Notes under the pieces: model-generated
The model's input: only the letters and a program-made list of their open reading frames with translations
The model's database searches: none
Told to the model about the DNA's origin: nothing
Source: Peptococcaceae bacterium
GTDB lineage: Bacteria; Bacillota; Dehalobacteriia; UBA4068; UBA4997
Reading direction: 5' to 3'
Assembly: GCA_022797295.1 (NCBI GenBank)
Contig: JAAWKH010000001.1
Location: 186,060-250,059 of the forward strand
DNA length: 64,000 bases
Shown here: positions 5,453 to 62,827 of the stretch, piece after piece
How the letters are laid out: each line of letters starts with the position of its first letter
How positions within the stretch are numbered: position 1 is the stretch's first letter
Made by a program: the position numbers and the translations under genes

Positions 5453-6025
5453 ATGCAGCAAAAGACAATGGATGTTCAGTTATATTTTGATACGGAAGAT
5501 TTGGGGCCGCACCGTTCGACCAGCCATCCGCTTTTTCGTCAATATTTTGCAGATGATTTGTATTATGATTGCTGTGATGAGGACGCGCCTTTTGGCAGCG
5601 ATGAGGGAAACGACACTCTGTGGGAGCTTCAGAACATTCTGCGCAAAAAACAGGATGTGAACTTTGCTGATTTTCCCCGCTGGATGATTGAGGACGAATG
5701 GGGGCTGACTTATCTGCCGCCGCAAAGCGGGCAGACTGACGAACAGCTGTTGGAGCTGGCGGCCCAAAGCTATAACGGCCTGCCTGGCGATATGGAGCTG
5801 CTGAACACTGTGCAGGTTATTTTGGCGGCTGCCTTTGGCCAGCTGAAAATCGTCGGACAGCTGGACGAGGCTCTGCAAGCTTTGGCTTTTCTGGCTTTGG
5901 ATCGTTGGGAAAAAATGTACCGACTTTTATATGGCTGGTCTGAGGCGGAGCCGCCATATAATATAAGAATTATGCGGCGTGATTTAACGGTGTATGCAAA
6001 CAGCCGAAAGAGGTTGGAAGAATGA
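5453..6025 (+). CDS. hypothetical protein
   Basis: ORF starts on the cobO stop codon. No recognisable domain. The start may instead be ATG 5468. Confidence 0.4.
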   Translation: MQQKTMDVQLYFDTEDLGPHRSTSHPLFRQYFADDLYYDCCDEDAPFGSDEGNDTLWELQNILRKKQDVNFADFPRWMIEDEWGLTYLPPQSGQTDEQLLELAAQSYNGLPGDMELLNTVQVILAAAFGQLKIVGQLDEALQALAFLALDRWEKMYRLLYGWSEAEPPYNIRIMRRDLTVYANSRKRLEE

Positions 6026-7296
6026 CAAACGTTTTGGTGATTGGCGGCGGCGCTGCCGGTTGCATGGCGGCGATTACAGCAGCCAAGGCGGGTGCGACTG
6101 TGACCCTTTGGGAAAAAAATGACCGCCTGGGCCGTAAACTAGCCATAACCGGCAAAGGCCGCTGCAATGTTACCAATGCTGCTCCGATTAATGAGCTGAT
6201 TGCTAATATCACCGGCAACGGCCGTTTTATGCACAGCGCTTTTGCAGCCTTTGATAATCAGGCTGTGATGGATTTTTTTGAAGGGTTGGGCGTGCCCTTA
6301 AAGGTAGAGCGTGGGCAGCGTGTTTTTCCGCAATCCGATAAAGCGGCTGATGTGATTTCCGCTTTGGAAAGAGAACTGAAACGTTTAAAAGTGGAAGTTT
6401 GCTTCAACACCTCAGCGCGACGATTGCTGTTGGCAGAAACAGCCGAGAGCCGGCAGGTGGTTGGTGCAATTTCCTCAGATGGCCGCAAAAAACAGGCAGA
6501 CGCGGTTATTTTAGCAACTGGCGGCGCAACCTATCGGGCAACTGGCAGCAGCGGCGATGGTTATGCTTTGGCAGCAGCGGTTGGGCATCGCATAATTGAG
6601 CCTTTGCCAGCATTGGTTCCGTTGGTAGCTGCTGAACCTTGGGTGGGCGAACTGGCTGGGCTTTCTCTGCGCAATGTGGAATTTAGCCTTTATAAAAATG
6701 GAATGGCAAGCAAAAAAAACTTGCTAGTTAAACTTTTTGGCGAGTTGCTTTTTACTCATTTTGGCCTTTCTGGTCCGGTAGTGTTGACCGCCTCCCGACA
6801 GGCGGCGCTGTTTTGGCGGGACAATCCAGAGCAGCAGTTGCTGGCGCAGCTCAATTTGAAGCCGGCGCTGACGCAGGAGCAACTGAATGCTCGTTTGGAG
6901 CGAGAGTTGGCAGCAGGCCCCAAACGCCATTTACACAATGTTTTGGCGGACTGGTTGCCTAAATCATTAATTTTCCCTTTTTGTCAGCAGGCAGGCTTGC
7001 CGGCAGATAAGCCGCTGAACGCTTTACAACATAAGGAACGGCAGCAACTTCTTCAAACTATTCAGGCTTTGCCGATTAGCTTAATTGGTACTAGGCCGTT
7101 GAATGAGGGTATTGTAACCTGCGGTGGAGTGTGCGTTAAGGAGGTTAATCCCAAAACCTTTGCTTCCAAGCTAGTTGCTGGATTGTTTTTTGTGGGCGAA
7201 CTGTTGGATGTTGACGCGCTGACTGGTGGTTATAATTTACAGATAGCATTCAGCAGTGGGCATGCAGCTGGAATGGCAGCAGCTTTGCCAAGATAA
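6022..7296 (+). CDS. NAD(P)/FAD-dependent oxidoreductase, HI0933/BaiN-like flavoprotein
   Basis: N-terminal VLVIGGGAAGCMAAITAAKAG FAD fold and HI0933-like length. Confidence 0.75.
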   Translation: MTNVLVIGGGAAGCMAAITAAKAGATVTLWEKNDRLGRKLAITGKGRCNVTNAAPINELIANITGNGRFMHSAFAAFDNQAVMDFFEGLGVPLKVERGQRVFPQSDKAADVISALERELKRLKVEVCFNTSARRLLLAETAESRQVVGAISSDGRKKQADAVILATGGATYRATGSSGDGYALAAAVGHRIIEPLPALVPLVAAEPWVGELAGLSLRNVEFSLYKNGMASKKNLLVKLFGELLFTHFGLSGPVVLTASRQAALFWRDNPEQQLLAQLNLKPALTQEQLNARLERELAAGPKRHLHNVLADWLPKSLIFPFCQQAGLPADKPLNALQHKERQQLLQTIQALPISLIGTRPLNEGIVTCGGVCVKEVNPKTFASKLVAGLFFVGELLDVDALTGGYNLQIAFSSGHAAGMAAALPR

Positions 7297-7313
7297 TGCT
7301 AGTTGTTAAATCA

Positions 7314-7356
7314 TAAAAAAACAGGCTGCTTTGAAACATAAGCAGTCTGTTTTTTA
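7314..7356. terminator. bidirectional rho-independent terminator between convergent genes
   Basis: CAGGCTGC...GCAGTCTG stem (one G-U wobble) flanked by an A-run on one side and a T-run on the other. Confidence 0.7.
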
Positions 7357-7371
7357 TGATTGTTATATTTT

Positions 7372-7638
7372 TTATTCAGCAGTGTAGGGCAGCAAAGCCA
7401 CGATGCGGCTGCGCTTGATAGCGTCAGTCAGCATACGCTGATGCTTGGCGCAGTTGCCAGAAACACGGCGGGGTAAAATCTTACCACGCTCAGTGATATA
7501 GTTGCGCAGGCGTGCAGTGTCTTTGTAGTCAATATACTGCGCTTTGTCAACGCAGAAGCGGCAAACACGACGACGGCTGCGGCGGCCACGATTGCCACGG
7601 AAAGGACGTCTTTCCTCCCTAGCTTTTTCTTCAGCCAT
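7372..7638 (-). CDS. rpsR: 30S ribosomal protein S18
   Basis: Typical S18 sequence (RRRVCRFC..., YKD...[16 protein letters not shown]). Confidence 0.9.
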
Positions 7639-7693
7639 GGGTCTTTCCTCCTTATATTATTGCAGTTAGCTGCAAAGTTTTCAATTAAATTTG

Positions 7694-10315: not shown

Positions 10316-13300
10316 TTAATCTATGCTTGATAAAATAATGTTGGTATCAGCAGCGATAGTGTATGTGTGCGAGCAACCAGCCTCCAGCATATTTGAATAG
10401 TACCAACTGTCAGGTAGATTGTCTGACCAGTTAGGCAGCTCTTGTTCGTTTATTAAATGCTCAGTACAAGATGTACGATTGAATAACAAATTAAGCAAGG
10501 TTACAGCTTCCGCGCGACTGATTGGTTGATTGGGCCTGAAGCTGCCGTCAGGATAGCCGTGTAATAAGCCGAGATCAGTTGCCTGATTAATGACATCTGC
10601 TGCCCAATGTTCTGCAATATCAGGAAAGGCTTTTGAAATTGAGCGCCCAACAGGGCTAGGTTCATCACTTGTTTGTAAATTATATATACGTATGGCAAGT
10701 GTGGCTAATTCTGCTCGTGTTAGGTAGGAGTTGGGTTTAAAACTGCCATCCTGGTAGCCTTGCAGCAAGCTGTTCTGTTTAAGAAAATCAACAGCAGTGT
10801 CATACCAATTTATTTCAGCGCTTGTTACTGTTTCAGAAGCGTTTGGATTTAGCAAACGATAAAGCATAACTGCTGCTTCTGCTCTGCTTAAATAAGCGTT
10901 TGGTCGTATGGTGCCATCACCATAACCATTAATATAAGCAAAATGTAAAAGTTGCTGATTGTTGGATGTTTGAATAGCTTCTTCTGGTTGAGATTGCGTT
11001 GGTTGTTTTTGTATGCTTCCAGAGCTACTGCTGCTAGGTCTGTTATCTGGATGGTTTTCAGGATAGCCCTCTTGCCAGACGGCATAAAGTGTGATGCTTG
11101 GCTGATTTTGACTTAATATTATTTGATTTCCTGCTTGGTAAATTGTTTCGCTGTTTGTGGGGGTTAATGCCCAACCTATGAAAGTGTAACCGTTTCGCTT
11201 TGGCTTTTCAGCCGTTATTTCAAATTGGTATTTTTCAGCTGTGCTGTAGCAAATTTGTTCCGCTGGTGTATCAAAACCGCCATTGCTATGGTAATACAGG
11301 CAATAAGCTGTTTCTAGCGGCTCTTGCAGGGGAGGTTGAGGAGTGCCAGGTTCTGGTTTTAAGTTATCGTTCAGTTGCCAAACTGCGTAGAGAGTTAGCT
11401 CTGGCGTTTCTTTATAAAGAAGAATTTGGTCTTCCGGTTGATATACTGCGTAATTAGCATTAGCTTGAGGAGCCCAGCCAATAAATTTGTAATTGTGGCG
11501 TGTTGGCTCTTCTTTGGGGATGAAAAAAGTATAGTTTTCAGTTTGAGCAGTAGCTGTTTGAGGGTAAGGCGCGTTGACGCCACCATTGCCGTTAAAGGAA
11601 AGCTTGTATTGATAAAGAGGGAGAGGTGGTGCAGGTTCGGTGCAAATTAGCTTAAAGCAAGGAAGATGTGAGTTGTTTGTTTGCCAGTTTTGTGTTGAGC
11701 TTTTATAATATAATTGTACGGTTTGCTCGTTTTCAGCCCCTAATACAAGCTTGTGCGGGCCATATGTTGTGTTGTATCGTTCAATGTAAGGTTGGGCCTG
11801 AAAGGTTAGCAAACAGCAATATCCGCTGTTGGAATAAGGCAGGCTTGGGCCAATTTGCAGGCCGTTTTGTTCCAGATTTAGGCCAATAGGATAATGCTCC
11901 GTTTGGCTGGCATTGATACATTCTAGTTGAATAGGCGTTGACGTACCTAGAATTTGCGCCAGTTCAGCATAAGTAGGCCTGGCTGGCGCGTGGCAATTTA
12001 TTATGAAAGTGCTATTATAATTGGGCGTTGTAATCCAGGCCTTGTTTTCTTCATCATAAAATAAGGTTAATAACTCCTTAGCTGATGAGTAAGTTGCTAT
12101 CAGCTTGTGGCCGTCTATTCTGGTGTTGTAATCATTCAGATAAGCGGATGGTTTGATGTTTAGGGTGGCGGTAAAATTGTTACTGTTTGTTTGATTGATG
12201 TGAAAGCTGTAGCTGTTTTCTTTAAGTGCATAGCTGAAAGTTAAATGCCCAGCCGCAGTGTTAGCACATTCAAGTTTTACGGCTTCAGATCCTAAAAGCT
12301 CTTTTAGATAGCTATAAGTGGGCTCGTCTGGCAATTTCTGCCAAACAGCGTAAAGTATGGTTTGCTTTTCAGTGGTGATTAAACTGCCGCCAGGCTGGCA
12401 AATTGCTTGTGTTGCGTTGGCCTCTAGGGCCCAACCTAAAAATTTGTAATTAATGCGTTGTGGTATTATTTCTGAAATTGTAAATAGACAATTTGTTTCT
12501 GTGCCGGAGGCGTGTTGTTCGGCAGGAGTGTTAAAACCACCGTTGACGTTGTAATAAAGTGTATATTCAATCGGTTCCGGCTCGGGCGGTTGTTCCTGTT
12601 CTTGCCAGATAGCGTAAAGTACATTTTGTTCATTTAGTGCCAGAAAAACCTCATTTGGCTGAAATTTGGCAATCAATGCGTCAGCGTCTGTATGCCAGCC
12701 TAAAAAATTCCAACCAGGGCGAACTGGTTTTGCCTCTGTTATGGTAAACACATGAAAAAAATCGAAGTCATATTCAATTTGCGGTTCGGGAGCTGTGCTG
12801 CCGCCGTTAGCGTCATATATTAATATATAGCAATGTTCAAGCGGTTGTGGATTATCCTCTTGCCAAATAGCATAGAGAGTGGTTTGCGAATTAATAGCCC
12901 AAAATTCATCGCCAGAGAGAAATTCAGCAGACAGAGCTTCTGAAGAAGTACTCCAGCCTAAAAAAATATAACCAGCTCGCACGGGTTCGTCAGAGCTGAT
13001 TGTGAATTGACAGAATATTTCTGTCGTTTGTTTGGTTTGTGTTGTAGGTGCCTGTTCGCCACCGTTAGCGTCATAAAGCAGCGTGAAGGTTTGAACCGGT
13101 AACGCTTGGTTTGATTGCCAAACTGCATAAAGAATGGTTAGGGGTGTGTTTGAAAAAAAGATTTCGCCGGGCTGATATTCAGCTTGGATGGCATTGGGAG
13201 TGGTGGCCCAGCCAACAAATGTATTATCTGCCAGATTGGGAGTTTCATAAGAAATATAAAAGATGTTGGAGGTGTTCTGTTGCAAAGCCGGTGCATTATC

Positions 13301-13450
13301 ACCGCCGTTAGCGTCATAGATTAAAAAATATTGCGGAACGATTTCTTCATTGCTTGCTGGAATAATATTGTTTGCCATAACCGGGGTGTTGAATAAAAAA
13401 ATCTGCGTTAAAATTACGCAGAGATACAAAGAGAATTTTATTTTTTTCAT
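10316..13450 (-). CDS. large secreted surface protein: signal peptide, 6 Listeria-Bacteroides-type repeats, 2 novel ~115-aa Cys-containing repeats, Pro/Ser linker, 3 C-terminal SLH domains
   Basis: N-terminal MKKIKFSLYLCVILTQIFLF signal sequence. Repeated ...LYDANGG..AP...F.GW....A....G......TLYAVWQ units. C-terminal FAYINGYGDGTIRPNAYLSRAEAAVMLYRLL-type SLH motifs x3. GGGGTG RBS. Confidence 0.8.
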   Translation of the reverse strand: MKKIKFSLYLCVILTQIFLFNTPVMANNIIPASNEEIVPQYFLIYDANGGDNAPALQQNTSNIFYISYETPNLADNTFVGWATTPNAIQAEYQPGEIFFSNTPLTILYAVWQSNQALPVQTFTLLYDANGGEQAPTTQTKQTTEIFCQFTISSDEPVRAGYIFLGWSTSSEALSAEFLSGDEFWAINSQTTLYAIWQEDNPQPLEHCYILIYDANGGSTAPEPQIEYDFDFFHVFTITEAKPVRPGWNFLGWHTDADALIAKFQPNEVFLALNEQNVLYAIWQEQEQPPEPEPIEYTLYYNVNGGFNTPAEQHASGTETNCLFTISEIIPQRINYKFLGWALEANATQAICQPGGSLITTEKQTILYAVWQKLPDEPTYSYLKELLGSEAVKLECANTAAGHLTFSYALKENSYSFHINQTNSNNFTATLNIKPSAYLNDYNTRIDGHKLIATYSSAKELLTLFYDEENKAWITTPNYNSTFIINCHAPARPTYAELAQILGTSTPIQLECINASQTEHYPIGLNLEQNGLQIGPSLPYSNSGYCCLLTFQAQPYIERYNTTYGPHKLVLGAENEQTVQLYYKSSTQNWQTNNSHLPCFKLICTEPAPPLPLYQYKLSFNGNGGVNAPYPQTATAQTENYTFFIPKEEPTRHNYKFIGWAPQANANYAVYQPEDQILLYKETPELTLYAVWQLNDNLKPEPGTPQPPLQEPLETAYCLYYHSNGGFDTPAEQICYSTAEKYQFEITAEKPKRNGYTFIGWALTPTNSETIYQAGNQIILSQNQPSITLYAVWQEGYPENHPDNRPSSSSSGSIQKQPTQSQPEEAIQTSNNQQLLHFAYINGYGDGTIRPNAYLSRAEAAVMLYRLLNPNASETVTSAEINWYDTAVDFLKQNSLLQGYQDGSFKPNSYLTRAELATLAIRIYNLQTSDEPSPVGRSISKAFPDIAEHWAADVINQATDLGLLHGYPDGSFRPNQPISRAEAVTLLNLLFNRTSCTEHLINEQELPNWSDNLPDSWYYSNMLEAGCSHTYTIAADTNIILSSID

Positions 13451-13734: not shown

Positions 13735-15099
<1,365 letters not shown>

Positions 15100-15180: not shown

Positions 15181-16023
15181 ATGTCTGTTAACGTGACGAT
15201 TAAATTGGCCGATCCGAAAAATGAATTGCAGATTAAAGATGTTCTTTTCAAAGGTATGCGTTATGGTATTATGGATGCTGCCTATAGATTGTCTGAAAAT
15301 GAAATTGGGGAAGTGATGGTTATTTTTAGTGAGGCCAATCTTTGCCGTGGATATGAGATTACATTGCCGCCAGGACAAATAGAGCTGCGCTTGCCAATTC
15401 CCACTAGCGATACGGATATTCGTTTTTTCTATAGTTTGGTGCAAAAGTTGTGCCAAAAGTTTGCAACAACTGATTTTTGGCGCGAGGATGAAAAGGGTAG
15501 CTTTGCGGAAATTCCTGATTATATTAAAGAGGATATTGGTTTAAGCGAGCGAACTTTGCTGATGATGGAGGAGGAAATTGATGCTGGCAAGTTTAATTCC
15601 TTGTATCTTTTTGGCGTTCTCAATCCGATTGCGATCAGCAAAAATGATTTACGGGAAATTGACGGCAGCTTGCAGAAACTGGCAGATTTTTTTCAACGGC
15701 ATCAAGCAATGGATGTTTACTATGCTAAACCTAGTGTTTACCAAAAAAATAACGAAAGCTTGTTTGGCGTGTATGTTCTGTCGGAAGATGTAGTGTCAGT
15801 TTTGCCTAATAAGCCTGGTTTGTTTATGGGACCTAAGGATATGCAGATAGCTGATTGGTATGTTGCCTTTGTTATCGATGATGATTTGGCTGGGACAATT
15901 TCCTATGCCGATTTTTTAGCCGACACTGAACCAAGCGCCGAATATGATGTTGAACATTTTATTATAAGTCTGAATAAAAGGCAGATGACCAAATTGCTGA
16001 GTTTTCATGCCGTACAGCCTTAA
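15181..16023 (+). CDS. hypothetical protein (280 aa, no domain recognised)
   Basis: Long ORF with its own terminator downstream. GGGAG lies 11 nt upstream of the ATG. Confidence 0.5.
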   Translation: MSVNVTIKLADPKNELQIKDVLFKGMRYGIMDAAYRLSENEIGEVMVIFSEANLCRGYEITLPPGQIELRLPIPTSDTDIRFFYSLVQKLCQKFATTDFWREDEKGSFAEIPDYIKEDIGLSERTLLMMEEEIDAGKFNSLYLFGVLNPIAISKNDLREIDGSLQKLADFFQRHQAMDVYYAKPSVYQKNNESLFGVYVLSEDVVSVLPNKPGLFMGPKDMQIADWYVAFVIDDDLAGTISYADFLADTEPSAEYDVEHFIISLNKRQMTKLLSFHAVQP

Positions 16024-16035
16024 ACAGTTTTAAGC

Positions 16036-16078
16036 AAAAGCCCTTTGCCGAAAATTTTTTCAACAAAGGGCTTTACAA
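16036..16078 (+). terminator. rho-independent terminator
   Basis: AAAGCCCTTTG...CAAAGGGCTTT inverted repeat followed by T-rich sequence. Confidence 0.6.
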
Positions 16079-16113
16079 ATTGCCTAAAAAATGGTATAGT
16101 ATATAGGTATTCT

Positions 16114-16187
16114 GCGGGTGTAGTTTAATGGCAGAACAAGAGCTTCCCAAGCTTTTAGCGAGGGTTCGATTCCCTTCACCCGCTCCA
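16114..16187 (+). tRNA. tRNA-Gly (anticodon CCC)
   Basis: Cloverleaf folded by eye. Acceptor stem GCGGGTG/CACCCGC, anticodon loop TTCCCAA, T-loop GGTTCGATTCC, 3' CCA encoded. Confidence 0.85.
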
Positions 16188-16193
16188 TTTGAA

Positions 16194-16224
16194 AAGGTTG
16201 TCTGTTGCAGGCAGCCTTTTTGTG
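16194..16224 (+). terminator. rho-independent terminator after tRNA-Gly
   Basis: GGTTGTCTG-TTG-CAGGCAGCC stem (with G-U pairs) followed by TTTTT. Confidence 0.65.
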
Positions 16225-16434
16225 TATATAAATTCAGGAAATGAAAGCAATAAAATGAGAGATTTTATTAAAGATTTTACGCAAGCAATACAAAGCTTAT
16301 TATAGTTGATTATACCAACAATATTTTTTCTGGAAATTATCTTTTTAGGAGGCAAATTTTTGACGAAACTATTTTAGGCAGTGTTGTCCGAAAAGATAAT
16401 GAGCCGATGTTTGGTAGTTAAAATATATTTAGCA

Positions 16435-16469
16435 GAATGCGGCCATTTTCTAGGAAAATGGCCGCATTC
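16435..16469 (-). terminator. terminator of the glnN-amt operon (perfect 15-bp stem)
   Basis: GAATGCGGCCATTTT-CTAGG-AAAATGGCCGCATTC located just downstream (minus strand) of the amt stop codon. Confidence 0.7.
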
Positions 16470-16507
16470 GCTTGAGTATGAAAGAGTATTAACTTGATAG
16501 ATTCTAA

Positions 16508-18214
16508 TTATTTGTCAATTTCTGGATACTGTAAGGCGTCAAATCCCTCCTTACCGCTGCGCACCTGAATAACGTTCTGCACGTCATAAACGAAAATTTT
16601 GCCATCGCCGTATTCGCCAGAGTAGAGCACTTGTTTAGCAACTTCAACAATCGCATTTACGGGCACTTTAGAAACGATAACCTCCACCTTAACCTTAGGC
16701 ACAAGCTTAGTTTCCATAGCGATGCCGCGGTAAAACTCTGTGGCTCCTTTCTGCAAACCGCAGCCCATAACCTCAGTGACGGTCATACCTGTAACGCCTA
16801 GGGCTGATAAAGCATTTTTTAGGGCTTCAAAGCGAGTGCGCCGGGTGATGATAACCACCTTACTGATACCGCTGTTGCAGGTTGCTGTTTCTGGAATAGT
16901 TTCCGCAGAATTGGGCAGTTTGACCGGAGCAATGTTGTTGTTCTGTGGTTCTGTATCTTCATAAATATTGTGAGTGACGGACATAAAATCTGCATAGGAG
17001 CTTACCAAACCATGTTCAGTAATATCTAAACCGGCAATTTCTTCGGCTGTGGTAACACGCAGGCCAATAGTTTTTTTCAGTATATTAAAGATGATAAACA
17101 TTGTAACGGCCACCCAGGCGATAACACTGACAACGCCCAAGGTTTGCACTGCTAGAAAATGTATGCCATTGCCATAAAGCAATCCTTCATCTATGGAAAA
17201 CAAACCAAGCAACAATGTGCCGCTAGCGCCGCAAACCCCGTGAACCGCAATGGCGCCAACCGGATCGTCAATTTTCAGCACTTTATCAATAAACTCAACC
17301 GCAAACACCACCAGCACGCCGCAGATAGCTCCAATAAGGGCCGCGCCTAGCGGCGAAACTGCGTCGCAGCCGGCGGTGATACCCACCAAACCGGCTAAAG
17401 AGCCGTTCAAGGTCATCGAAACATCTGGTTTGCCGTAACGTACCCAAGTCAACAGCATAGTAATCAAGGTGGCAGTTGCAGCGGACAGGTTGGTTGTTAC
17501 AAAAATGGAAGCAGCTGATGTGGCGCTTTCCAGAGAGGATAGGGCAGTGGTTGAACAGCCGTTGAAGCCGAACCAGGCAAACCAAAGGATGAATACGCCT
17601 AATGCTCCAAGGGTTAGGCTATGGCCGGGAATGGCATGGCTTTTGCCGTTGCTGTCATATTTGCCAATACGAGGCCCAATGCAGGCAGCTCCAACTAGCG
17701 CGGCTACGCCGCCAACCATATGCACGGCGGTGGAACCGGCAAAATCGTGAAATCCCAGCTGGCTTAACCAACCGCCTCCCCAAATCCAGTGGCCGGAAAC
17801 GGGATAAATGCAAGCGCTGATAAGCAATGAATACAGACAATAGGTGGAGAATTTAGTGCGCTCGGCCATTGCCCCTGATACAATCGTGGCGGCTGTGGCA
17901 CAGAACACTGTTTGAAAGATGATAAAAGCAAATGAGGTGTAGCCGCTTTCAGCGCCATAATCGTTGCGGATTAAAAAATCCGGTGTGCCGATTATTCCGG
18001 CAATATCAGAACCAAACATTAAGCCAAAGCCCAGCAGCCAAAAGATAACACTACCAATCGCAAAATCCATTAAGTTTTTCATAATGATGTTACCGGCATT
18101 TTTGGCTCTGGTAAAACCGGTTTCCACCATTGCAAAGCCGGGCTGCATAAAAAACACCAATGCAGCGCCTAGCAACACCCAAAGAGTATCCAGTCCGATA
18201 ATAATTTCTTCCAT
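16508..18214 (-). CDS. amt: ammonium transporter (Amt) fused in-frame to a C-terminal nitrogen regulatory PII (GlnB/GlnK-like) domain
   Basis: N-terminal Amt transmembrane region (FFMQPGFAMVETG...). C-terminal ~112 aa match PII (GMTVTEVMGCGLQKG..., GDGKIFVYDV...). ATG at 18214 has GGAG 9 nt upstream. The ORF is continuous. Confidence 0.8.
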   Translation of the reverse strand: MEEIIIGLDTLWVLLGAALVFFMQPGFAMVETGFTRAKNAGNIIMKNLMDFAIGSVIFWLLGFGLMFGSDIAGIIGTPDFLIRNDYGAESGYTSFAFIIFQTVFCATAATIVSGAMAERTKFSTYCLYSLLISACIYPVSGHWIWGGGWLSQLGFHDFAGSTAVHMVGGVAALVGAACIGPRIGKYDSNGKSHAIPGHSLTLGALGVFILWFAWFGFNGCSTTALSSLESATSAASIFVTTNLSAATATLITMLLTWVRYGKPDVSMTLNGSLAGLVGITAGCDAVSPLGAALIGAICGVLVVFAVEFIDKVLKIDDPVGAIAVHGVCGASGTLLLGLFSIDEGLLYGNGIHFLAVQTLGVVSVIAWVAVTMFIIFNILKKTIGLRVTTAEEIAGLDITEHGLVSSYADFMSVTHNIYEDTEPQNNNIAPVKLPNSAETIPETATCNSGISKVVIITRRTRFEALKNALSALGVTGMTVTEVMGCGLQKGATEFYRGIAMETKLVPKVKVEVIVSKVPVNAIVEVAKQVLYSGEYGDGKIFVYDVQNVIQVRSGKEGFDALQYPEIDK

Positions 18215-18255
18215 TGTAAAATCACTCCAATTTAGTATAGTAAAAAAATTTATAT

Positions 18256-18301
18256 AAAAAAGACGTGCTTTGCGAGGAGAAACCTCACTTGGCACGTCTT
18301 T
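18256..18301 (-). terminator. intergenic hairpin/terminator between glnN and amt
   Basis: Minus strand AAAGACGUGCCAAGUGAGG-UUUC-UCCUCGCAAAGCACGUCUUUUUU. Confidence 0.55.
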
Positions 18302-18321
18302 GTGTCGAATTGTAAAAAAAT

Positions 18322-20409
18322 TTAATAGAACAAAAGCTGACTATAGGTGGGGAAAGGCCAGTATTTAGCGGCGCACAGACCCTCCAGCTTATCAGCAACA
18401 GCTCGCAGCTCATTCATTTTTGGCAAAACAGTGTCGTGATAGTACATTGCTTTAGCCTCTGAGCTTGGTAAATCGCTGTTGTTCAGCAAACTCTGCAAGT
18501 CGGTAATATTTTGAGATAGGTTATCAGTGCATTCGGAAATTTGAGTTAATAATTTTTCCTCAGCAACATAACCAACGCCAGCAATTTGTTTTTTAGCCAG
18601 CAGGCAATCGGCTAATTCGTGTGAATAGGTGAGAACAGCCGGTAAAATTTCGGTTTGAGCCATCTCTAGCATAGTCAAAGCTTCAATATGCAAAACCTTG
18701 TGGTACTCATCCATAATACTTTCTGCACGCGCTTGCATTTCCTTGCGGCTGTAAATACCTTGACGAGCAAACATAGCCACGTTTTTGGTTTCCATGTAGT
18801 GTGGCAAAGCCTCAGGTGTGGATTTTAGATTTAGCAAGCCGCGCTTTTCAGCTTCATCAACCCATTCTGGTGAGTAATTGTTGCCGTTGAAGATAATACG
18901 TTTGTGAGCGAGCAGCTGTTTTTTTAGGAATTTATTAAGGGCTTCGTCAAATTCAGCCGGGTCAACAGTTTCTAACTCATCAGCAAATACGCACAAGGTG
19001 TCGGCCACAATGGCATTCAAGATGATATTTGGGCAAGCCAGCGAGAAGCCGGAGCCTAACATTCTAAATTCAAATTTGTTGCCGGTGAAAGCAAAGGGGG
19101 AAGTGCGGTTGCGGTCGGTGCTGTCCTTGGGCAGTTTGGGCATAGCGCGCACTCCAAAATCCAGATAATCATTGCCCAGCTCCTCATAGGTTTTGTCGTT
19201 GGCCAAAGATTCAATAACTGCTTCCAGTTCATCACCGATAAAAACTGAAACAATGGCCGGCGGGGCTTCATTGGCGCCTAAACGGTGGTCGTTGCCAGCG
19301 CTGGCAACAGAAATACGCATCAAATCCTGATAATCATCCACTGCTTTGATGATAGCAGTTAGGTACGTTAGGAACTGCATGTTTTCGCGTGGTGTTTTGC
19401 CAGGCTCCAGTAGATTTTCACCCAAATCAGTAGCTATAGACCAGTTGTTATGTTTGCCTGAACCATTTACACCTTCAAAAGGTTTTTCGTGAAGCAGACA
19501 GGTCAGGCCGTGTTTGGCAGCCACCTTTTTCATCATTTCCATCACCAGCTGATTGTTATCTGTGGCGTTGTTGGTGGTGGAGTAAATGGTTGCCAACTCA
19601 TGTTGGGCAGGAGCCACCTCATTATGCCGAGTTTTGGCTAAAATGCCAAGCTTCCAAAGCTCTTCGTCCAAGTCCTGCATAAAATTGATAACGCGAGGCC
19701 GGATAGCGCCGAAATAATGGTCTTCCAGCTCTTGCCCTTTGGGAGGCATTGCGCCAAAGAGGGTGCGGCCGGTGAAGCGCAGATCCGCCCTTTGTTTAAA
19801 CATTTCCGCATCAATTAGGAAATATTCCTGCTCCGGCCCAACCGTGGTGCTGACGTGGGTGGCTTCAGTGTTGCCAAACAGGCGCAAAATGCGCAGGGCT
19901 TGTCTGTTGATAGCTTCCATTGAACGCAGCAGAGGAATTTTTTTATCCAGCACCTCGCCGCCATATGAGCAGAATGTGGTGGGGATACACAGGGTGTTAT
20001 CCTTGATGAAAGCGTAAGATGTTGGGTCCCAGGCGGTGTAACCGCGCGCCTCAAAGGTGGAGCGCAAACCGCCGGATGGGAATGAGGAGGCGTCTGGCTC
20101 GCCCTGGATTAAGTTGCGGCCGGAAAACTCCATAATCACGTTGCCACCTTCAGTGGGCTCAATAAAGCTATCGTGTTTTTCTGCGGTGAAGCCGGTTAAA
20201 GGCTGGAACCAATGGGTGTAGTGGGTTACTCCTTTCTGGATCGCCCAGTCCTTCATGGCCACCGCAACGGATTCTGCCAGGGAAGGGTCAAGTGGGTTGC
20301 CGGATTGAATGGTTTTTTTCAAAGCTTTGTAAACAGCTTTGGGCAAGCGTTCCTTCATTACGTTTTCATTAAAGACATTGCTGCCAAACAACTCAGGAAC
20401 ATTAGACAT
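18322..20409 (-). CDS. glnN: glutamine synthetase type III
   Basis: ~700-aa GS with type III N-terminal region. ATG at 20409 preceded by GGAGGTG. Confidence 0.85.
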
Positions 20410-20446
20410 AAAATGCACCTCCAAAATTTCTTCCAATCTTTTTATT

Positions 20447-20477
20447 TGTTAACGAATGTTAACGAAAATTGTAAACA
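20447..20477 (-). promoter_or_regulatory. tandem TGTTAACGAA direct repeats (plus a third TGTAAAC) in the glnN 5' leader; candidate operator
   Basis: TGTTAACGAA at 20447-20456 and again at 20457-20466, then AATTGTAAACA. TGTNA half-sites at helical phasing. Confidence 0.4.
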
Positions 20478-20486
20478 GTTTTAATG

Positions 20487-20521
20487 AAAAAAAGCGCCGC
20501 AGGTAATATCCCCGCAGCGCC
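20487..20521 (-). terminator. intrinsic terminator-like hairpin located between the glnN promoter and the glnN start codon
   Basis: Minus strand GCGCUGCGGG-GAUAUUA-CCUGCGGCGC followed by UUUUUUU. Confidence 0.65.
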
Positions 20522-20539
20522 TTTGCTGAATACTCTAAT

Positions 20540-20568
20540 ATTATATGCCCTGCGCGTTTATTTGTCAA
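20540..20568 (-). promoter_or_regulatory. consensus sigma-A promoter TTGACA-17-TATAAT reading toward glnN
   Basis: Minus-strand -35 at 20563-20568 and -10 at 20540-20545, exact consensus hexamers with a 17-nt spacer. Confidence 0.7.
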
Positions 20569-20636
20569 TAGGGTAAATGCAAATATTTTTAATTTTTTTG
20601 TGCAAGTTACAAGCCTTTAGATGAAGCAAGATAAAC

Positions 20637-21404
20637 TTAGTTGTTCATAAAACGGCTTAAAAATTCCTGTGTACGCGGGTTTTGTGGGGCAGTGAATATT
20701 TGCTTTGGTGGGCCAGCCTCGGCAATAACACCAGCGTTCATAAAAATAGTGTGTGTGCTCACGTCGCGGGCAAACGCCATCTCGTGCGTTACAATAATCA
20801 TTGTCATGCCTTCCTCAGCCAGGCTGCGGATAACATCCAACACCTCGCCAACCATTTCCGGGTCCAGGGCGGAGGTGGGCTCGTCAAAAAGCAGTACCTC
20901 TGGCTGCATAGAAAGCGCACGGGCAATGGCCACCCGCTGCTTTTGGCCGCCGGAAATCTGGTTGGGCTTGGCCTTGATGTAAGGATCCATACCAACCTTG
21001 GTTAGGTATTTCATTGCCACTTCCTCGGCGTAGGCTTTGTTCTGCTTCAAAACCTGGGTAATACCTATCGTGCAGTTATCCAAAACAGTCATATTGTTGA
21101 ATAAATTAAAGCTTTGAAATACCATTCCCACTTTGGCGCGATATTTGGTGACGTTATTTTTTTTGTCCAAAATATTAACGCCTTTGTGCAGAATTTCACC
21201 ACCGGAAGGTGTTTCCAGCACATTAATACAACGCAAAAGGGTGCTTTTGCCGGAGCCGGAAGCGCCGATAATGCTGGTAACATCGCCGGGATAAATGGAA
21301 AAGTCAATATCCTTGAGCACCTGGTGGTTGCCAAAGGATTTTTGCAGATGCTTGACCTCCAAAATTGGTTCTCTGGTTGTTGATTGAATTGTTTGTTCTG
21401 GCAT
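20637..21404 (-). CDS. amino acid (Gln/polar) ABC transporter ATP-binding protein
   Basis: Walker [18 protein letters not shown] signature, Walker [23 protein letters not shown]. Confidence 0.85.
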
Positions 21405-21407
21405 TAT

Positions 21408-22205
21408 TTATACCCCCCTTTTATCGTGTTGGGTAGGAGCTGAAGTCATCCCGCTGGTGTGGGCCAATGTGTCGGTGGTGGATAAATCGTAATTATCCGC
21501 GCCGTCGATACGTTTTTCCACCAGGCGCAGCAGTCGGGAGGAAATCAGGGTCATTGTCAGATAAACGGCGCAGGCAATGCTCATTGATTCAAAATAGGTG
21601 TAATATACGCCAGAAACGGAGCGGGCGAAGAACATTAATTCAGTGGTGGAGATAACCGAAAGCACGGAGCTATCCTTAATATTAATGATGAAATTGTTGC
21701 CAATTTGCGGCATAATATTACGGATAGCCTGTGGCAGCACCACAAAAAGCATCGTCTGAACGTGATTCATACCAATAGCCTTGGCTGCCTCGGTTTGTCC
21801 TTTATCCACTGAAAAAATGCCGCCGCGCATAGTTTCAGCCATATAAGCGCCTGTGTTGATGGAGATAACAAAGAAGCCGGCAAAAAGCGGATCAATATGA
21901 TAAGATGTGTATTGAATGATACCGTAATAAATGAAACCGGCCTGCACCATCATTGGAGTGCCGCGGAAAAATTCCACATAAACACCAATTAAACACTTGG
22001 CTAAACGGACGACAATTTTTTTTGCGGGGCTGTCATTTTTTTCGACTGGAATGGTTTGAACAATGCCGCAGATGAAGCCGATTAAACAGCCGAAAAAGGT
22101 GCCGACAAGCGCCAGAAGCAATGTGATTTTGGCGCCGTCCAGATAACCGGGGCCGTAAGTTTGTATCAAAAATTGAACTTTTTCAAAAAAATTTTTTTCT
22201 GCCAT
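21408..22205 (-). CDS. amino acid ABC transporter permease (His/Glu/Gln/Arg/opine family)
   Basis: Polytopic membrane protein with the EAA-like loop motif. GAGAGGA RBS. Confidence 0.8.
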   Translation of the reverse strand: MAEKNFFEKVQFLIQTYGPGYLDGAKITLLLALVGTFFGCLIGFICGIVQTIPVEKNDSPAKKIVVRLAKCLIGVYVEFFRGTPMMVQAGFIYYGIIQYTSYHIDPLFAGFFVISINTGAYMAETMRGGIFSVDKGQTEAAKAIGMNHVQTMLFVVLPQAIRNIMPQIGNNFIINIKDSSVLSVISTTELMFFARSVSGVYYTYFESMSIACAVYLTMTLISSRLLRLVEKRIDGADNYDLSTTDTLAHTSGMTSAPTQHDKRGV

Positions 22206-22250
22206 TTTAATCCTCTCATTTACAGGTTGGTCAGTACAATTACACGCTCA

Positions 22251-22280
22251 AAAGGAGAGGCTGAAAAACGTCTCTCCTTT
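22251..22280 (-). terminator. intra-operon hairpin (partial terminator) between the binding-protein and permease genes
   Basis: Minus strand AAAGGAGAG-ACGUUUUUCAGC-CUCUCCUUUU. Confidence 0.5.
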
Positions 22281-22309
22281 CGGGCGGAAAATATTAAAAT
22301 TTTTGCATC

Positions 22310-23182
22310 TTATTCATTGGTCAAAGGCTGAATTTCAATGGCTTGGTTCATCATTTCCACAAAGTCCTCTTCAGTCATGTTGTTCAAAACGCTGTTCAGC
22401 TTGTCCAACAGCTCGGTATTACCTTTTTTCAGGGAGATACCAATGTTGATGTCCTCCTGGGAGGCTACAAAATCTTTGCCTTCTTCCATTTCCAGCAGCA
22501 CGAAGTTGGGGTAAACCAGCTTAGCGGCCATAGCGGTGGGTTGGTCTGTCACAATCAAGTCAACCGCACTGCTGTTTAAGGCAACCAACATCAAGGGTGC
22601 GCTTTCCATAGCCGGTTGAATGTCGGCGTCCGGGATTTGGGGCAGCATAACGTCGTACCAAACGGTTTTCAGCTGAGAGGTGCATTTGGCGCCGGCCAAT
22701 GCTTCAACGGAAGTGGCGTTGGCGTATGGCGTATCGTCACGCGTAACGGCGATAATTGAAGCATAATAGTAAGGAGCGGTGAAATCTACGCTTTCCATAC
22801 GCTCGGAAGTGATGGATTGGCCGGCAATGGCGCAATCAATAACGCCAGACTGCACAGCAATCGGCAGACTGTCCCAGTCGATTTTGTGAATTTCCAGTTC
22901 GTAGCCAATCTGGTCGGCCAGATACTTGGCCATCATAACGTCGTAGCCGTTGGCGTAGCTGTTGGTGTCCACAATCGGCACGGCGCCATTGCTGTCATCA
23001 TTTTGCATCCAGTTGTAGGGCGCATAGCCACATTCCATACCAACTCGTAATACTTTACCTTGTTCTTGGTCTTGAGTGCCGCCCTGATTGGTGGCTGGTT
23101 CCTTGCTGGTGCAGGCGCTCAGCCCAGCCAGCATACCGCACAGCAACAGCGCGGCGGTGATTAAATAAGCTAACTTTTTCAT
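22310..23182 (-). CDS. amino acid ABC transporter substrate-binding lipoprotein
   Basis: Signal peptide plus lipobox LSAC. Periplasmic binding protein family 3-like sequence. Confidence 0.8.
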   Translation of the reverse strand: MKKLAYLITAALLLCGMLAGLSACTSKEPATNQGGTQDQEQGKVLRVGMECGYAPYNWMQNDDSNGAVPIVDTNSYANGYDVMMAKYLADQIGYELEIHKIDWDSLPIAVQSGVIDCAIAGQSITSERMESVDFTAPYYYASIIAVTRDDTPYANATSVEALAGAKCTSQLKTVWYDVMLPQIPDADIQPAMESAPLMLVALNSSAVDLIVTDQPTAMAAKLVYPNFVLLEMEEGKDFVASQEDINIGISLKKGNTELLDKLNSVLNNMTEEDFVEMMNQAIEIQPLTNE

Positions 23183-23968: not shown

Positions 23969-25147
23969 ATGTTTGGTTTTCGTAAAAAATCCCCTGTTGA
24001 ATCAGGGGCTGCTGGTGAACCTGAAAGAGATTATACAGTATTTGCTGAAGGAATGCAGCAATTCTGGCGCCGCAGATTGCCTGGTGCAGAGTTGGGCCAA
24101 GACGGTGTAATTACAGTACCGGAGCTTGGTTTGCGTTTGTGGCAGGAGTTTTACCAACAACATCCGCAGATTTTGCAAATGGTTTTGCATTGCAATCATC
24201 CAGATTTTACAGATGACTTGACGGAGTTGCTGGTTGCCACTGGCGCCGATCCTGAAGAACAGCTGCAAGGCATGGCTGATCAGGTGGAGAGATTGGTGCT
24301 GGAGCCTTTGCTGAATGCTTTACAAGGACAAAATGGTACTTGGGAGGCTTGGCGTTTGCAAGGACGCGAGCATCTTTTTTTGGCTTGCGAAAGCTTACTT
24401 ATGGGGCGTTGTAAAGCTCAAGAGATCTTTGAGGAAAATGTACCGCAAAGCAGTTTGTGGCAGCGTTTTAAAGCTGAAATCATTCCTTATCTGGGTTGTA
24501 AGCGCAATTACTGGCTAAAGCTTTATCAAAGCAACTTTGCCAATGAGCTTAATTGTGAGGTGCGTATTAATGAGCGATTAGTGCCGGAGCTTAGTGAGCT
24601 TTTAACTCAGGACGCGCAAAAATATGCTGTAACAGATTGGGATCAAAAGCAAACCGTTATGTTGTTGCAGGATACGGCCACCAGCCTTGATTATCCTTTT
24701 AGCGCAGCTAAGGTGCGGGAATATGCTTTGCAGGCATTGAGGATGTTTGCGGCTGGTCAGGATAGCGATACAGTTTTTCAACGGTTGTGGGCTGATTGTG
24801 GTGATGTTTCTTTGAGCTGTGATTTGGCACATTATTTGCCGGAAATTTGCTGCTTTAAATGTGTGCGGGAGGCGGATACGCCTAACAAAACTTTTATTCT
24901 GCGCAGCAAGGGTTGGGCAGATGATTTGCAGCTTCGGGAAACTCAAATTGGCTGTTACGATTGGTGTGAACAGGCCATTAATGAGTTTTTCTCGGTTGAT
25001 AAGCCCAGCCGTGATACATTGACGCAGATAATTAGCTATGGCGCAACGGCCAAAGCGATGAATGCAGCTATTCAAAAGGGATCGCAGACCAAAAATATGC
25101 GTTTTAGCATGTTGTTTTGGGTACCGGATGATTATATACTGCGTTAA
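23969..25147 (+). CDS. hypothetical protein (392 aa, Cys/Trp-rich, no domain recognised)
   Basis: Begins 6 nt after the upstream stop (likely co-translated). Ends at a perfect palindromic terminator. Confidence 0.5.
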   Translation: MFGFRKKSPVESGAAGEPERDYTVFAEGMQQFWRRRLPGAELGQDGVITVPELGLRLWQEFYQQHPQILQMVLHCNHPDFTDDLTELLVATGADPEEQLQGMADQVERLVLEPLLNALQGQNGTWEAWRLQGREHLFLACESLLMGRCKAQEIFEENVPQSSLWQRFKAEIIPYLGCKRNYWLKLYQSNFANELNCEVRINERLVPELSELLTQDAQKYAVTDWDQKQTVMLLQDTATSLDYPFSAAKVREYALQALRMFAAGQDSDTVFQRLWADCGDVSLSCDLAHYLPEICCFKCVREADTPNKTFILRSKGWADDLQLRETQIGCYDWCEQAINEFFSVDKPSRDTLTQIISYGATAKAMNAAIQKGSQTKNMRFSMLFWVPDDYILR

Positions 25148-62572: not shown

Positions 62573-62827
62573 TGATATTTTCAAATATTGGTGCTATAAT
62601 GTTAGCAATAGCGGAATATAATATACTTGCCCGACAGTGTGCGAAGAGATGCTGATAAGTTTTGAGCCAACACTCAAAATATGGGATTCTTATATTTGTC
62701 TGTGGACTTAATGCCTCCATCGAGTGGACTAAGGAAGCAGCTTGCGGAAGCCCACCTGCATATGCAGGTTCAAAACATCGGCGTTGGACCGGCATTGTGG
62801 GGCATTTTTTTATTAGGAGGGGATTTT
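62573..62827 (+). promoter_or_regulatory. sigma-A promoter (TTGATA-16-TGcTATAAT) plus ~220-nt structured leader upstream of pyrF
   Basis: -35 at 62573-62578 and -10 at 62595-62600. The leader contains the palindrome CCTGCATATGCAGG (62755-62768) and a T7 run (62805-62811) directly before RBS AGGAGGGG. Confidence 0.5.

Follow-up and report, generated by a model that had tools for sequence, protein, structure and literature searches.

In E. coli the gene order is glnK-amtB and the PII protein GlnK is uridylylated on Tyr51. In B. subtilis the order is amt then PII, and loss of a single stop codon would therefore yield a fusion of the two products. The E. coli complex consists of a GlnK trimer docked on an AmtB trimer at 1:1 (2NS1, 2NUU), in which Arg47 of GlnK blocks the exit of the AmtB pore (PMC4274968). 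A GlnK Y51A variant still joins and leaves AmtB upon ADP versus ATP/2-oxoglutarate, and an R47A variant is still able to bind AmtB (PMC4274968); binding thus does not depend on the Arg, which is the plug, and the fact that it is conserved is no proof of docking. The archaeal GlnK-Amt complex is favoured by ADP and disrupted by MgATP plus 2-oxoglutarate (PMC8395244). LacS-IIA and SbtA-SbtB provide a further parallel, since in both a cytoplasmic regulator that is fused to the transporter, or docks on it, gates transport (PMC10710835), although the transporter families are unrelated to Amt and the effectors are different. Finally, sensor Amt fusions combine an Amt and a C-terminal cytoplasmic signalling module in one chain; these include 6EU6 and the 644-661 aa chains named 'ammonium transporter' in 8QJ3, 8QJ4 and 8QPF. 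Structure 6EU6 presumably shows the Amt domain of an Amt-histidine kinase (Ks-Amt5 of Kuenenia), and 8QJ3 is taken here to be Shewanella Sd-Amt1 (Amt-HAMP-GGDEF).

The window analysed here, a stretch of DNA of 64 kb, contains an amt::PII fusion gene (16508..18214, minus strand; 568 codons plus stop) identified from the ORF list, Pfam and NCBIfam. Linkage to an amt gene, a hallmark of GlnK, is taken in this case to its extreme, a translational fusion; unlike the separate polypeptides of E. coli and the two genes of B. subtilis, Amt and PII are covalently joined, in that order. A preliminary description of this DNA had claimed one continuous 568-codon ORF specifying an Amt domain, a linker and a complete PII fold at the C-terminus. 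The ORF list confirmed the first part, and Pfam, NCBIfam, PDB matches and an AF2 model agreed on the second; the gene is real. The ORF starts at the ATG at 18214, with a GGAG sequence 10 nt upstream, and homologues can be aligned from residue ~8. An alternative GTG start at 18295, which would render a protein of 595 aa, was rejected, since it falls within a terminator hairpin and lacks an RBS. An internal translation start that might produce free PII was also sought, but there was no Met, nor any convincing RBS plus start, at the junction; no second PII or Amt gene was detected by tblastn within the window. The product is quite probably a single-chain ammonium transporter-PII protein, equivalent to the Firmicute nrgA-nrgB (amtB-glnK) pair minus its intergenic stop codon, in which PII would serve as a tethered autoinhibitory plug.

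The identical 568-aa protein is encoded on 47 independently assembled contigs (NCBI, JGI, ENA, Logan), and has been deposited at NCBI as MCI9044001.1, "ammonium transporter [Peptococcaceae bacterium]". Relatives with 85% identity were found on 22 further contigs. The 47 assemblies replace the read pile-up that had been proposed as a check of the junction, and they reveal no hidden stop or frameshift. A survey of related genomes, also proposed, found the fusion in all 80 of the species-representative genomes fetched; in 79 it was complete, while in the remaining one (L054) it ended at residue 517 owing to the end of the contig. The carriers include Clostridia, Negativicutes, Erysipelotrichia and some Treponema and Sphaerochaeta. 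Both Pfam domains were present in 120/120 relatives among the matches listed (65-99% identity), and nearly all of the best 150 PII-domain cluster representatives from 1.84 billion proteins were longer proteins with the PII stretch as their C-terminal part. The notion that a frameshift, or a stop lost through sequencing, had artefactually joined separate amt and glnK genes has nothing in its favour except that fusions are, in general, rare in textbook organisms. Frameshift or misassembly is refuted by the 47 contigs, the relatives and the 80 genomes, and the two domains are joined by an in-frame linker of 45 residues rather than by a short overlap; the probability of an artefact is practically nil. 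The remark in the preliminary description that Amt and PII are usually separate genes requires qualification: the fusion itself is genuine, but in this lineage it is nothing out of the ordinary. Anaerobes of gut and sediment commonly carry it, and it is already present in public databases, where Pfam detects the Amt plus PII architecture automatically in many proteins. Public names such as "ammonium transporter" hide the PII domain, so PII inventories of gut Clostridia and Negativicutes will undercount.

The Amt domain (residues 11-403; 17006..18184, minus strand) matches PF00909 (Ammonium_transp) with an E value of 1.7e-125 and 419 bits (cutoff 23.2) over profile positions 1-396 of 399, and the NCBIfam model TIGR00836 'amt' with 441.8 bits (cutoff 343.3). 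In the AF2 model of the single chain, 11 long helices lie between residues 2 and 382, followed by short helices at 389-401, with a pLDDT of ~90. By homology to AmtB, the predicted topology is one of 11 TM helices plus a cytoplasmic C-terminal region, and the conserved sequence of the latter (GLRV..EE..GLD..EHG) is present; unlike E. coli AmtB, this Amt has no signal peptide. Conservation was assessed in 201 fusion proteins that are 54-99% identical overall. The positions aligned to E. coli F103, F107, W148, D160, H168, F215 and H318 are kept in 201/201 fusions, and the S219 equivalent, present in the query, in 180/201. Upon alignment to 1xqe the pore signature of the query is complete, with the Phe gate (F107/F215), the W148/S219 recruitment site, D160 and the twin His (H168/H318). 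By profile and pore signature, the domain belongs to the Amt/MEP/Rh ammonium transporters, with putative transport activity. Its relatives in the PDB are 6eu6, 8qj3, 2b2f and E. coli AmtB (1xqe).

The PII domain (residues 451-555 by Pfam; 16550..16864, minus strand), whose fold extends to residue ~561, matches PF00543 (P-II) with an E value of 6.7e-23 and 81.4 bits (cutoff 25) over profile positions 2-102 of 102. The profile-HMM check suggested in the preliminary description therefore gave matches above cutoff for both halves of the translation. The NCBIfam equivalog models for GlnB and GlnK gave 92 and 89.5 bits where 202 and 181 are required, so the domain, although a PII, is no equivalog of the enterobacterial GlnB/GlnK. 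The best PDB matches were 4r25/4rx6 (E 2.7e-34), the former being B. subtilis GlnK (PMC4335299), which is the closest solved PII; E. coli GlnK (2ns1_B) followed with 7.7e-25. AF2 returned the ferredoxin-like beta-alpha-beta-beta-alpha-beta fold (strand 450-458, helix 459-472, strand 478-486, loop, strand 503-514, helix 519-530, strand 538-545), in which strands 2 and 3 are joined by a long T-loop. The T-loop (residues 486-504, equivalent to PII positions 37-55; 16703..16759, minus strand) reads GLQKGATEFYRGIAMETKL in the translation, and the codon of Arg496, the equivalent of GlnK Arg47, lies at 16727..16729 (minus strand). The tip of the loop (R47 201/201, Y46 200/201, G48 201/201) and Q39 (200/201) are nearly invariant among the 201 fusions, as are the effector-site residues (K58 186/201, G87-D88-G89 200/201, K90 201/201, R103 197/201). 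The protein shares with the E. coli complex Tyr46-Arg47-Gly48, Q39, K58, R103 and the G87-K90 B-loop, together with the Amt pore residues and the C-terminal region of Amt. From the ATP/ADP plus 2-oxoglutarate site (Q39, K58, G87-G89, K90, R101, R103) only R101 is missing in the query: position 101 is Gln here, Lys in 181/201 fusions, Arg in E. coli and Asn in B. subtilis GlnK. Position 38 is Leu, not Arg as in E. coli.

The preliminary description had also claimed a T-loop without the modifiable Tyr, and rightly so: position 51 is occupied by Met500 (YRGIAM), it is V, L, M or I in 195/201 fusions, and Tyr is absent from the four commonest residues listed for this position in the 201 proteins. 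The domain is therefore not a member of the proteobacterial class of uridylylated GlnB/GlnK, in which Tyr51 (in Y-R-G-A-E-Y) is the substrate of GlnD. This is no peculiarity of the fusion, since the whole Firmicute NrgB-type GlnK class lacks Tyr51, and PII modification is unreported in Firmicutes (PMC4285133). The T-loop is of the type found in B. subtilis GlnK (GCGLQK..E.YRG[VI].[IM]E; YRGVKIES in 4R25), which is also unmodified and has no Tyr51. The PII domain is of the Bacillus NrgB/GlnK type, and its residues predict ligand binding. Loss of Tyr51, a hydrophobic residue instead of Arg at position 38 and the absence of Arg at position 101 might be read as signs that the domain has decayed or is purely structural, for instance a stabilising cytoplasmic cap. 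This is very improbable: the same substitutions occur in the functional B. subtilis GlnK and in archaeal GlnK, the residues of the effector site and of the T-loop tip show little or no variation in 201 proteins in which the adjoining linker varies, and AF2 folds the domain confidently.

The linker (residues 404-449; 16868..17005, minus strand), of about 45 residues, is poorly conserved and predicted to be disordered (AF2 pLDDT <50 at residues 408-447); across the 201 fusions its length ranges from 23 to 68 aa (median 50), with no sequence consensus. By homology, the most likely mechanism would be a tethered plug that docks upon binding ADP and undocks upon binding MgATP plus 2-oxoglutarate. 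As in the E. coli complex, a trimer would sit on a trimer at 1:1: the Amt domains of three chains would assemble into a trimer in the membrane, and below it their PII domains would make up a second trimer, each hanging from a flexible tether of ~45 residues. Under nitrogen sufficiency, with 2-oxoglutarate low and ADP in the PII sites, the three T-loops would extend and Arg496 would enter the cytoplasmic pore exits, shutting the channel; under nitrogen limitation, with MgATP and 2-oxoglutarate in these sites, the loops would retract and the PII trimer would undock, yet stay tethered, and the channel would conduct. Tyr51 being absent, gating would proceed without covalent modification. Fusion through the N-terminus of PII would leave its C-terminus free, which may be relevant to 2-oxoglutarate binding: a free GlnK C-terminus stabilises bound 2-oxoglutarate, and a hydrophobic residue 38 helps to bind ATP (PMC8395244). 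The tether would set the stoichiometry at 1:1 and raise the local concentration of PII, and would also keep it from roaming the cytoplasm toward other targets. In contrast, the free GlnK of B. subtilis has TnrA as a further partner and is able to detach from the membrane. Although AmtB-GlnK appears in a list of complexes that other genomes encode with fused subunits (PMC4009401), the searchable literature yielded no experiment on a naturally fused Amt-PII protein, and nothing on the function or structure of one, beyond that passing mention, and docking and undocking are for this reason inferred by homology only. A natural single-chain complex would be convenient for cryo-EM, and for the analysis of gating by effectors alone, without covalent modification.

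In sensor Amt fusions the kinase or cyclase output passes the signal onward, while in the tethered-plug model the appended module would be the transporter's own inhibitor. The closest solved relatives of the Amt domain are nevertheless of the sensor type (6eu6, E 8e-93; 8qj3/8qpf, 644-661 aa, ~9e-79; compare 4e-52 for E. coli AmtB), which raises the alternative that the fusion is mainly a receptor. The Amt domain would then sense external ammonium, changes in its C-terminal region would release or capture the T-loops of the tethered PII trimer, and the latter would be the output, recruiting or releasing a soluble partner, with plugging of the pore secondary; the arrangement would parallel the Amt-histidine kinase and Amt-diguanylate cyclase fusions. 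Candidate partners would be the type III glutamine synthetase (GSIII) encoded by the conserved neighbouring gene, a regulator of the antitermination system considered below, or a TnrA-like factor; B. subtilis GlnK bound to AmtB can in fact also bind TnrA, using its helices and not its T-loops (PMC4335299). This alternative seems rather unlikely. The partner is a candidate only, and no more than about half the loci have GSIII next to the fusion gene; the domain passes the NCBIfam 'amt' transporter cutoff; and its PII is of the GlnK/NrgB type, for which inhibition of Amt is the ancestral and best documented role (PMC4274968). The invariance of the pore residues in the fusions points the same way, although pore conservation cannot tell sensors from transporters, since 6eu6 keeps the same residues in the alignment.

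The GSIII gene (glnN-type; 18322..20409, minus strand) lies upstream of the fusion gene and specifies a protein of 695 aa with the domains and the size (about 700 aa) expected of this class, namely GSIII_N (PF12437, E 1.2e-81), the catalytic Gln-synt_C (PF00120, E 2.7e-23) and Gln-synt_C-ter (PF18318, E 6.4e-40). Its start is probably the ATG at 20409, which has a GGAGG RBS and gives the 695 aa of the orthologue in L081, rather than the TTG at 20436. The class had been correctly assigned, but the emphasis on its rarity needs correcting for these bacteria, in which GSIII is the usual partner: it lies directly upstream of the fusion, on the same strand, in 41/80 loci. The contexts without GSIII are heterogeneous (cardiolipin synthase, gltD-like, purF-like, argG, nifH), so the linkage is frequent, not obligatory. 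Upstream of GSIII are the genes of a polar amino-acid ABC transporter (SBP_bac_3, permease and ATPase by Pfam; 20637..23182, minus strand), with the same synteny in L081-L083. A glutamate dehydrogenase gene (13741..15099, plus strand; ELFV_dehydrog and ELFV_dehydrog_N), convergent with the fusion gene and also a neighbour in L081, belongs to the same nitrogen-assimilation neighbourhood.

The spacer between the GSIII and fusion genes contains an intrinsic terminator (18255..18304, minus strand; fold -24.4 kcal/mol, z -4.55), the 5' arm of which overlaps a mini-hairpin, CAC[AAAGAC]GUG, at 18293..18304. L081, a relative with 85% identity, keeps the terminator and shows compensatory changes in it, and a hairpin plus T-run is present in 21/41 related GSIII-to-fusion spacers; being separated by a conserved terminator, the two genes are therefore not simply co-transcribed. 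The promoter/terminator scan also defined a GSIII promoter and leader (20483..20568, minus strand; fold z -5.2), consisting of a 12/12 sigma-70 promoter (20568..20540) and a mini-hairpin, CAGC[AAAGGC]GCUG (20528..20515), that overlaps a terminator (20524..20490) followed by a T-run. This leader is kept in L081 with a compensatory change, and the same architecture was found in 28/34 related GSIII leaders. Apart from the gating of the channel, expression of the fusion gene and of GSIII is probably controlled by antitermination at the hexaloop-hairpin/terminator element that precedes each of them.

In both leaders, a hexaloop hairpin reminiscent of the targets of ANTAR proteins (EutV, NasR, AmiR) overlaps the terminator. 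The likeness, which applies to the leaders only, lies in A1 and G4 of the hexaloop and in the 3' half of the hairpin serving as the 5' arm of the terminator; in addition, AGCAAAGGCGCUG matches 11/13 positions of AGCAANGRRGCUY. ANTAR targets have been reported in association with nitrogen genes, including those for PII, Amt and glutamine synthase (PMC3369931). The canonical substrate is however a pair of hairpins, both required by EutV, while here only one is evident, 10-13 nt past a consensus -10 box: an AxxG-loop candidate for a second, tandem hexaloop hairpin (P1) was found in only 4/87 leaders, the consensus promoter filling the space. In an unbiased 8-mer test of stem covariation, 52, 53 and 46 of 60 were paired, as against 24, 24 and 26 of 63 in the controls. 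The 12-mer CAAAGRCGYKGC occurs 8 times in the window against 3.6 expected and is not enriched on this count alone, the signal being clear only across loci. Rfam at gathering thresholds found only 6S RNA and a tRNA in the whole window, and a permissive scan of 18150..20700 yielded only a chance snoRNA match; on reading the sequence, the GSIII leader contained no match to the GlnR/TnrA box (TGTNAN7TNACA). For work on nitrogen regulation in these bacteria, the leader hairpins may prove more useful than the fusion near which they lie.

A bolder proposal, itself improbable, is that the tethered PII is the primary nitrogen sensor of the cell, with docking set by Amt flux and by 2-oxoglutarate/ATP, and that undocked PII captures a soluble partner, such as GSIII or the kinase or regulator of an ANTAR-type antitermination system. 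If this were true, such a system would govern GSIII, the fusion gene and several enzymes that depend on glutamine, acting at a 5'-proximal hexaloop hairpin that is, unusually, single, and the fused sensor would be tied to an undescribed RNA-level nitrogen regulon. A weak search of the 64-kb window, by regex and by tblastn with an approximate AmiR probe, returned no ANTAR protein. In the related loci L010 and L025, an ANTAR-domain protein is encoded after glnA (PF03861, E 1.1e-15 for L010).

The fusion gene was found to be an uninterrupted ORF of 568 codons on the minus strand, running from an ATG at 18214 to a stop codon at 16508–16510. A GTG at 18295, offered as the start by the mechanical ORF list, was rejected since this codon lies within a strong hairpin; the ATG at 18214 has a GGAG 10 nt upstream, and alignments with homologues begin at residue ∼8. 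The coordinates assigned in the preliminary description, which had reported one continuous 568-codon ORF, are therefore right. The profile searches proposed there (Pfam) placed Ammonium_transp at residues 11–403 (E = 1.7e-125) and P-II at residues 451–555 (E = 6.7e-23), both far above the curated cutoffs, which bears out an Amt domain followed by a complete C-terminal PII domain. The protein also passed the NCBIfam ‘amt’ subfamily model (441.8 bits versus a cutoff of 343.3), and matched the enterobacterial GlnB/GlnK equivalog models with scores under their cutoffs. The earlier reading of the fusion was thus essentially right, and the finding real. In a single-chain AlphaFold2 model built from 92 family members, the eleven long helices (residues 2–382) had a pLDDT of ∼90, as did the short helices in the C-terminal region of Amt, while the linker (residues 408–447) fell below 50; residues 450–561 formed a beta-alpha-beta-beta-alpha-beta domain with a pLDDT of ∼80 and a T-loop of lower confidence. 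Across 201 aligned fusions the linker measured 23–68 residues (median 50) and had no consensus.

The fusion protein has the NCBI entry MCI9044001.1 (‘MAG: ammonium transporter [Peptococcaceae bacterium]’), and the identical 568-aa sequence was present in 47 contigs of a protein collection (NCBI, JGI, ENA, Logan). The proposed survey of related genomes found the same fusion throughout. PF00909 and PF00543 were both present in all 120 of the best database relatives listed (65–99% identity, 552–637 aa), which came from Oscillospiraceae, Clostridium, Herbinix, Acidaminococcaceae, other Negativicutes, Sphaerochaetaceae and Spirochaetia. When one genome per species was scanned, at least 80 loci gave a match; among the matches listed, 80 of 80 encoded the fusion, each with contiguous matches to Amt and PII. 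In 79 of these the match spanned the PII domain to query residue 561 or beyond, and in the other (L054) it stopped at residue 517, where the contig ends. The carriers listed include Clostridium methylpentosum, Anaerocolumna sedimenticola, Phascolarctobacterium succinatutens, Dialister, Blautia, Roseburia, Butyricicoccus and a Treponema MAG. When compared alone with 1.84 billion cluster representatives, the PII domain matched 116 clusters at E ≤ 1e-30; the PII stretch was C-terminal in a longer protein in nearly all of the best 150 clusters, many of which were fusion fragments ending at contig ends. This recurrence, and the residue conservation described below, count against an assembly artefact, a disfavoured explanation: the fusion is no artefact and it is not rare. 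Its architecture, of the Firmicute NrgA/NrgB type, is common and can be seen in databases. In Firmicutes the two genes run in the order nrgA-nrgB, which is also the domain order of the fusion, so that loss of a single stop codon would be enough to produce it. Because PII comes last, after Amt and the linker, its C-terminus is free; C-terminal tags on GlnK perturb 2-oxoglutarate binding (PMC8395244). In the searchable literature, the only acknowledgement of an Amt-PII fusion was the inclusion of AmtB-GlnK (2NS1) in a list of ‘prefusion’ complexes, which have subunits that occur fused elsewhere (PMC4009401), and a functional study was not found; what is already known of the fusion is its architecture. 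Three close PII-domain relatives of 247–362 aa from the cluster search (P0154, P0155 and P0232) contain two or three PII stretches and look like tandem PII-PII fusions. Separately, a contig whose record title is Escherichia coli ‘cleanbin’ (L012, CAVCLW010000009.1) carries an Amt-PII fusion, GSIII and leader hairpin almost identical to those of P. succinatutens (L007), and is probably mis-binned.

Residue conservation in the PII domain was analysed over the 201 fusions, with positions numbered as query residue minus 449 via alignment to 1GNK. G27, G35, G37, G41, R47, G48 and K90 were invariant; Q39, Y46 and G87-D88-G89 were retained in 200 of 201, R103 in 197 and K58 in 186. Position 38 was hydrophobic; the same is true of archaeal GlnK, in which ATP is contacted by Ile38 (PMC8395244). 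A decayed PII domain is disfavoured, the conservation and recurrence data both counting against it. The nearest solved PII structures were 4R25/4RX6 (E = 2.7e-34), which are B. subtilis GlnK (PMC4335299); that protein and the fusion share a T-loop type (GCGLQKAHTELYRGVKIES and GCGLQKGATEFYRGIAMET, respectively). The tyrosine modified in proteobacterial GlnK (Tyr51) had been noted as missing, which is correct for the fusion (position 51 is V, L, M or I in 195 of 201, and Tyr was not among the residues listed) but no peculiarity: its absence is normal for the whole NrgB-type class. Uridylylation is absent from B. subtilis GlnK (PMC4335299), and PII modification is without any report in Firmicutes or archaea (PMC4285133).

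In the Amt module, the equivalents of E. coli F103, F107, W148, D160, H168, F215 and H318 were invariant over the same 201 fusions, that of S219 was retained in 180, and the C-terminal motif GLR..EE..GLD..EHG was essentially invariant. The best solved relatives of this module were 6eu6 and 8qj3, ahead of AmtB. Both are sensor-type Amt fusions, and 6eu6 has the same pore residues as the fusion, so the Amt module might instead be mainly a receptor, with the tethered PII as a membrane hub, a reading we consider unlikely. In unfused pairs, GlnK contacts AmtB almost wholly via its T-loops, Arg47 blocking the pore exit, and the complex is promoted by ADP and disrupted by MgATP plus 2-oxoglutarate (PMC4274968; PMC8395244). 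The fusion conserves all the residues that these rules require, and the length of its variable linker would permit both docked and undocked states. On these grounds, and by analogy with the unfused pairs, we infer that the PII domain would be a tethered autoinhibitory plug on its own Amt channel, its docking and undocking driven solely by effector binding. With E. coli GlnK Y51A, AmtB on/off cycling upon ammonium shock persists (PMC4274968; PMC8395244). R47A GlnK retains AmtB binding (PMC4274968), so conservation of the arginine favours plugging rather than binding.

The gene 5′ of the fusion had been described as a type III glutamine synthetase, and GSIII_N was indeed matched (Pfam, E = 1.2e-81). 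Its probable start is the ATG at 20409 (minus strand), preceded by GGAGG, which gives a protein of 695 aa, equal to the orthologue in L081 (the 85%-identity relative). Of the 80 loci listed, 41 had GSIII directly upstream of the fusion and in the same orientation, and all GSIII matches in their flanks had this arrangement; loci without it had mixed neighbours (gltD-like, purF-like, argG, nifH, cardiolipin synthase).

Hairpins with a U-run were found on the minus strand between GSIII and the fusion gene (18255..18304; strong, z = −4.55) and in the GSIII leader (20483..20568; z = −5.2), the latter immediately after a 12/12 sigma-70 promoter. Both terminator hairpins are kept in L081 with compensatory changes. 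The terminator overlaps a mini-hairpin in 28 of 34 related GSIII leaders and in many fusion-gene leaders: its 5′ arm doubles as the mini-hairpin's loop and 3′ strand. The stem of the mini-hairpin, 3–5 bp long, is closed by a C-G pair, and the hexaloop reads AAAGGC or differs slightly from it, with A1 and G4 retained; the element is present at both window sites given above and occurs across L001–L081 (e.g. L016:3652, L029:3649, L040:3742 and L014:5911), in many Clostridia. In an unbiased stem test, 60 occurrences of the 8-mer CAAAGGCG with a T-run after them had complementary flanks at stem positions 1–4 in 52, 53, 46 and 37 cases, with many pair types, G-U included, whereas 63 occurrences of CAAAGGCG without a T-run gave 24, 24, 26 and 26, which is chance level; stem covariation is thus well above the control. 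The element was also present 5′ of type I glnA (an identity that Pfam supported in L010) and, as read from N-terminal sequences, apparently of pyrG, carA, purF and a divergently transcribed gene for a GltB-type amidotransferase subunit, whose 60-residue fragment had no Pfam match.

The element is similar to the P2 hairpin found in ANTAR targets, which have been reported 5′ of genes for PII, Amt and glutamine/glutamate synthase (PMC3369931): AGCAAAGGCGCUG matches the consensus AGCAANGRRGCUY at 11 of 13 positions. The canonical ANTAR substrate is, however, a dual hairpin, and here only one is evident, 10–13 nt past a consensus −10 box. In L010:9931..11943 (minus strand) and L025 (about 5640..7652, minus strand), glnA is preceded by the leader element and followed by a ∼190-aa ORF matching an ANTAR probe, a layout resembling a glnA-nitR operon; type I GS and ANTAR (PF03861, E = 1.1e-15) were confirmed by Pfam in L010. 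This ORF is a candidate regulator of the hairpin regulon. An ANTAR gene was not detected within the 64-kb window, a weak negative. A single-hairpin, ANTAR-like nitrogen regulon may merit separate study. In A. sedimenticola, the gene 3′ of the fusion (L005:8444..9265, plus strand) reads as a putative nifH, and a hexaloop-hairpin/terminator, TGAC[ACAGGC]GTCA, lies between the two at 8254, so the element may control nitrogenase genes too. A direct repeat, CGTTAACA-TT-CGTTAACA, which follows the GSIII leader terminator and precedes the RBS (20445..20470, minus strand), folds as a small hairpin (GUUAAC/GUUAAC) and is not conserved in L081.

L081 is syntenic with the window over the ABC amino-acid transporter, GSIII and Amt-PII block, with GDH nearby. 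GC skew is ∼0.00–0.05 over 16001..22000 and +0.11 to +0.29 in the remaining window; the genes in the 16–22 kb block (Amt-PII, GSIII, ABC ATPase, permease) are all on the minus strand, so the skew tracks gene orientation. Immediately 3′ of the fusion gene, and convergent with it, is a tRNA-Gly(CCC) (16114..16187, plus strand); a 6S RNA (62626..62807, plus strand; 87 bits) lies near the window end. The nitrogen cluster is flanked by DUF4299 and DUF6348 proteins (15181..16023 and 23969..25147, plus strand), the latter also a neighbour of the cluster in L081. The gene at 10316..13450 (minus strand) encodes a surface protein of 1044 aa that contains three SLH domains and five Listeria-Bacteroides repeats (Flg_new), and a protein resembling it adjoins the nitrogen cluster in L081.
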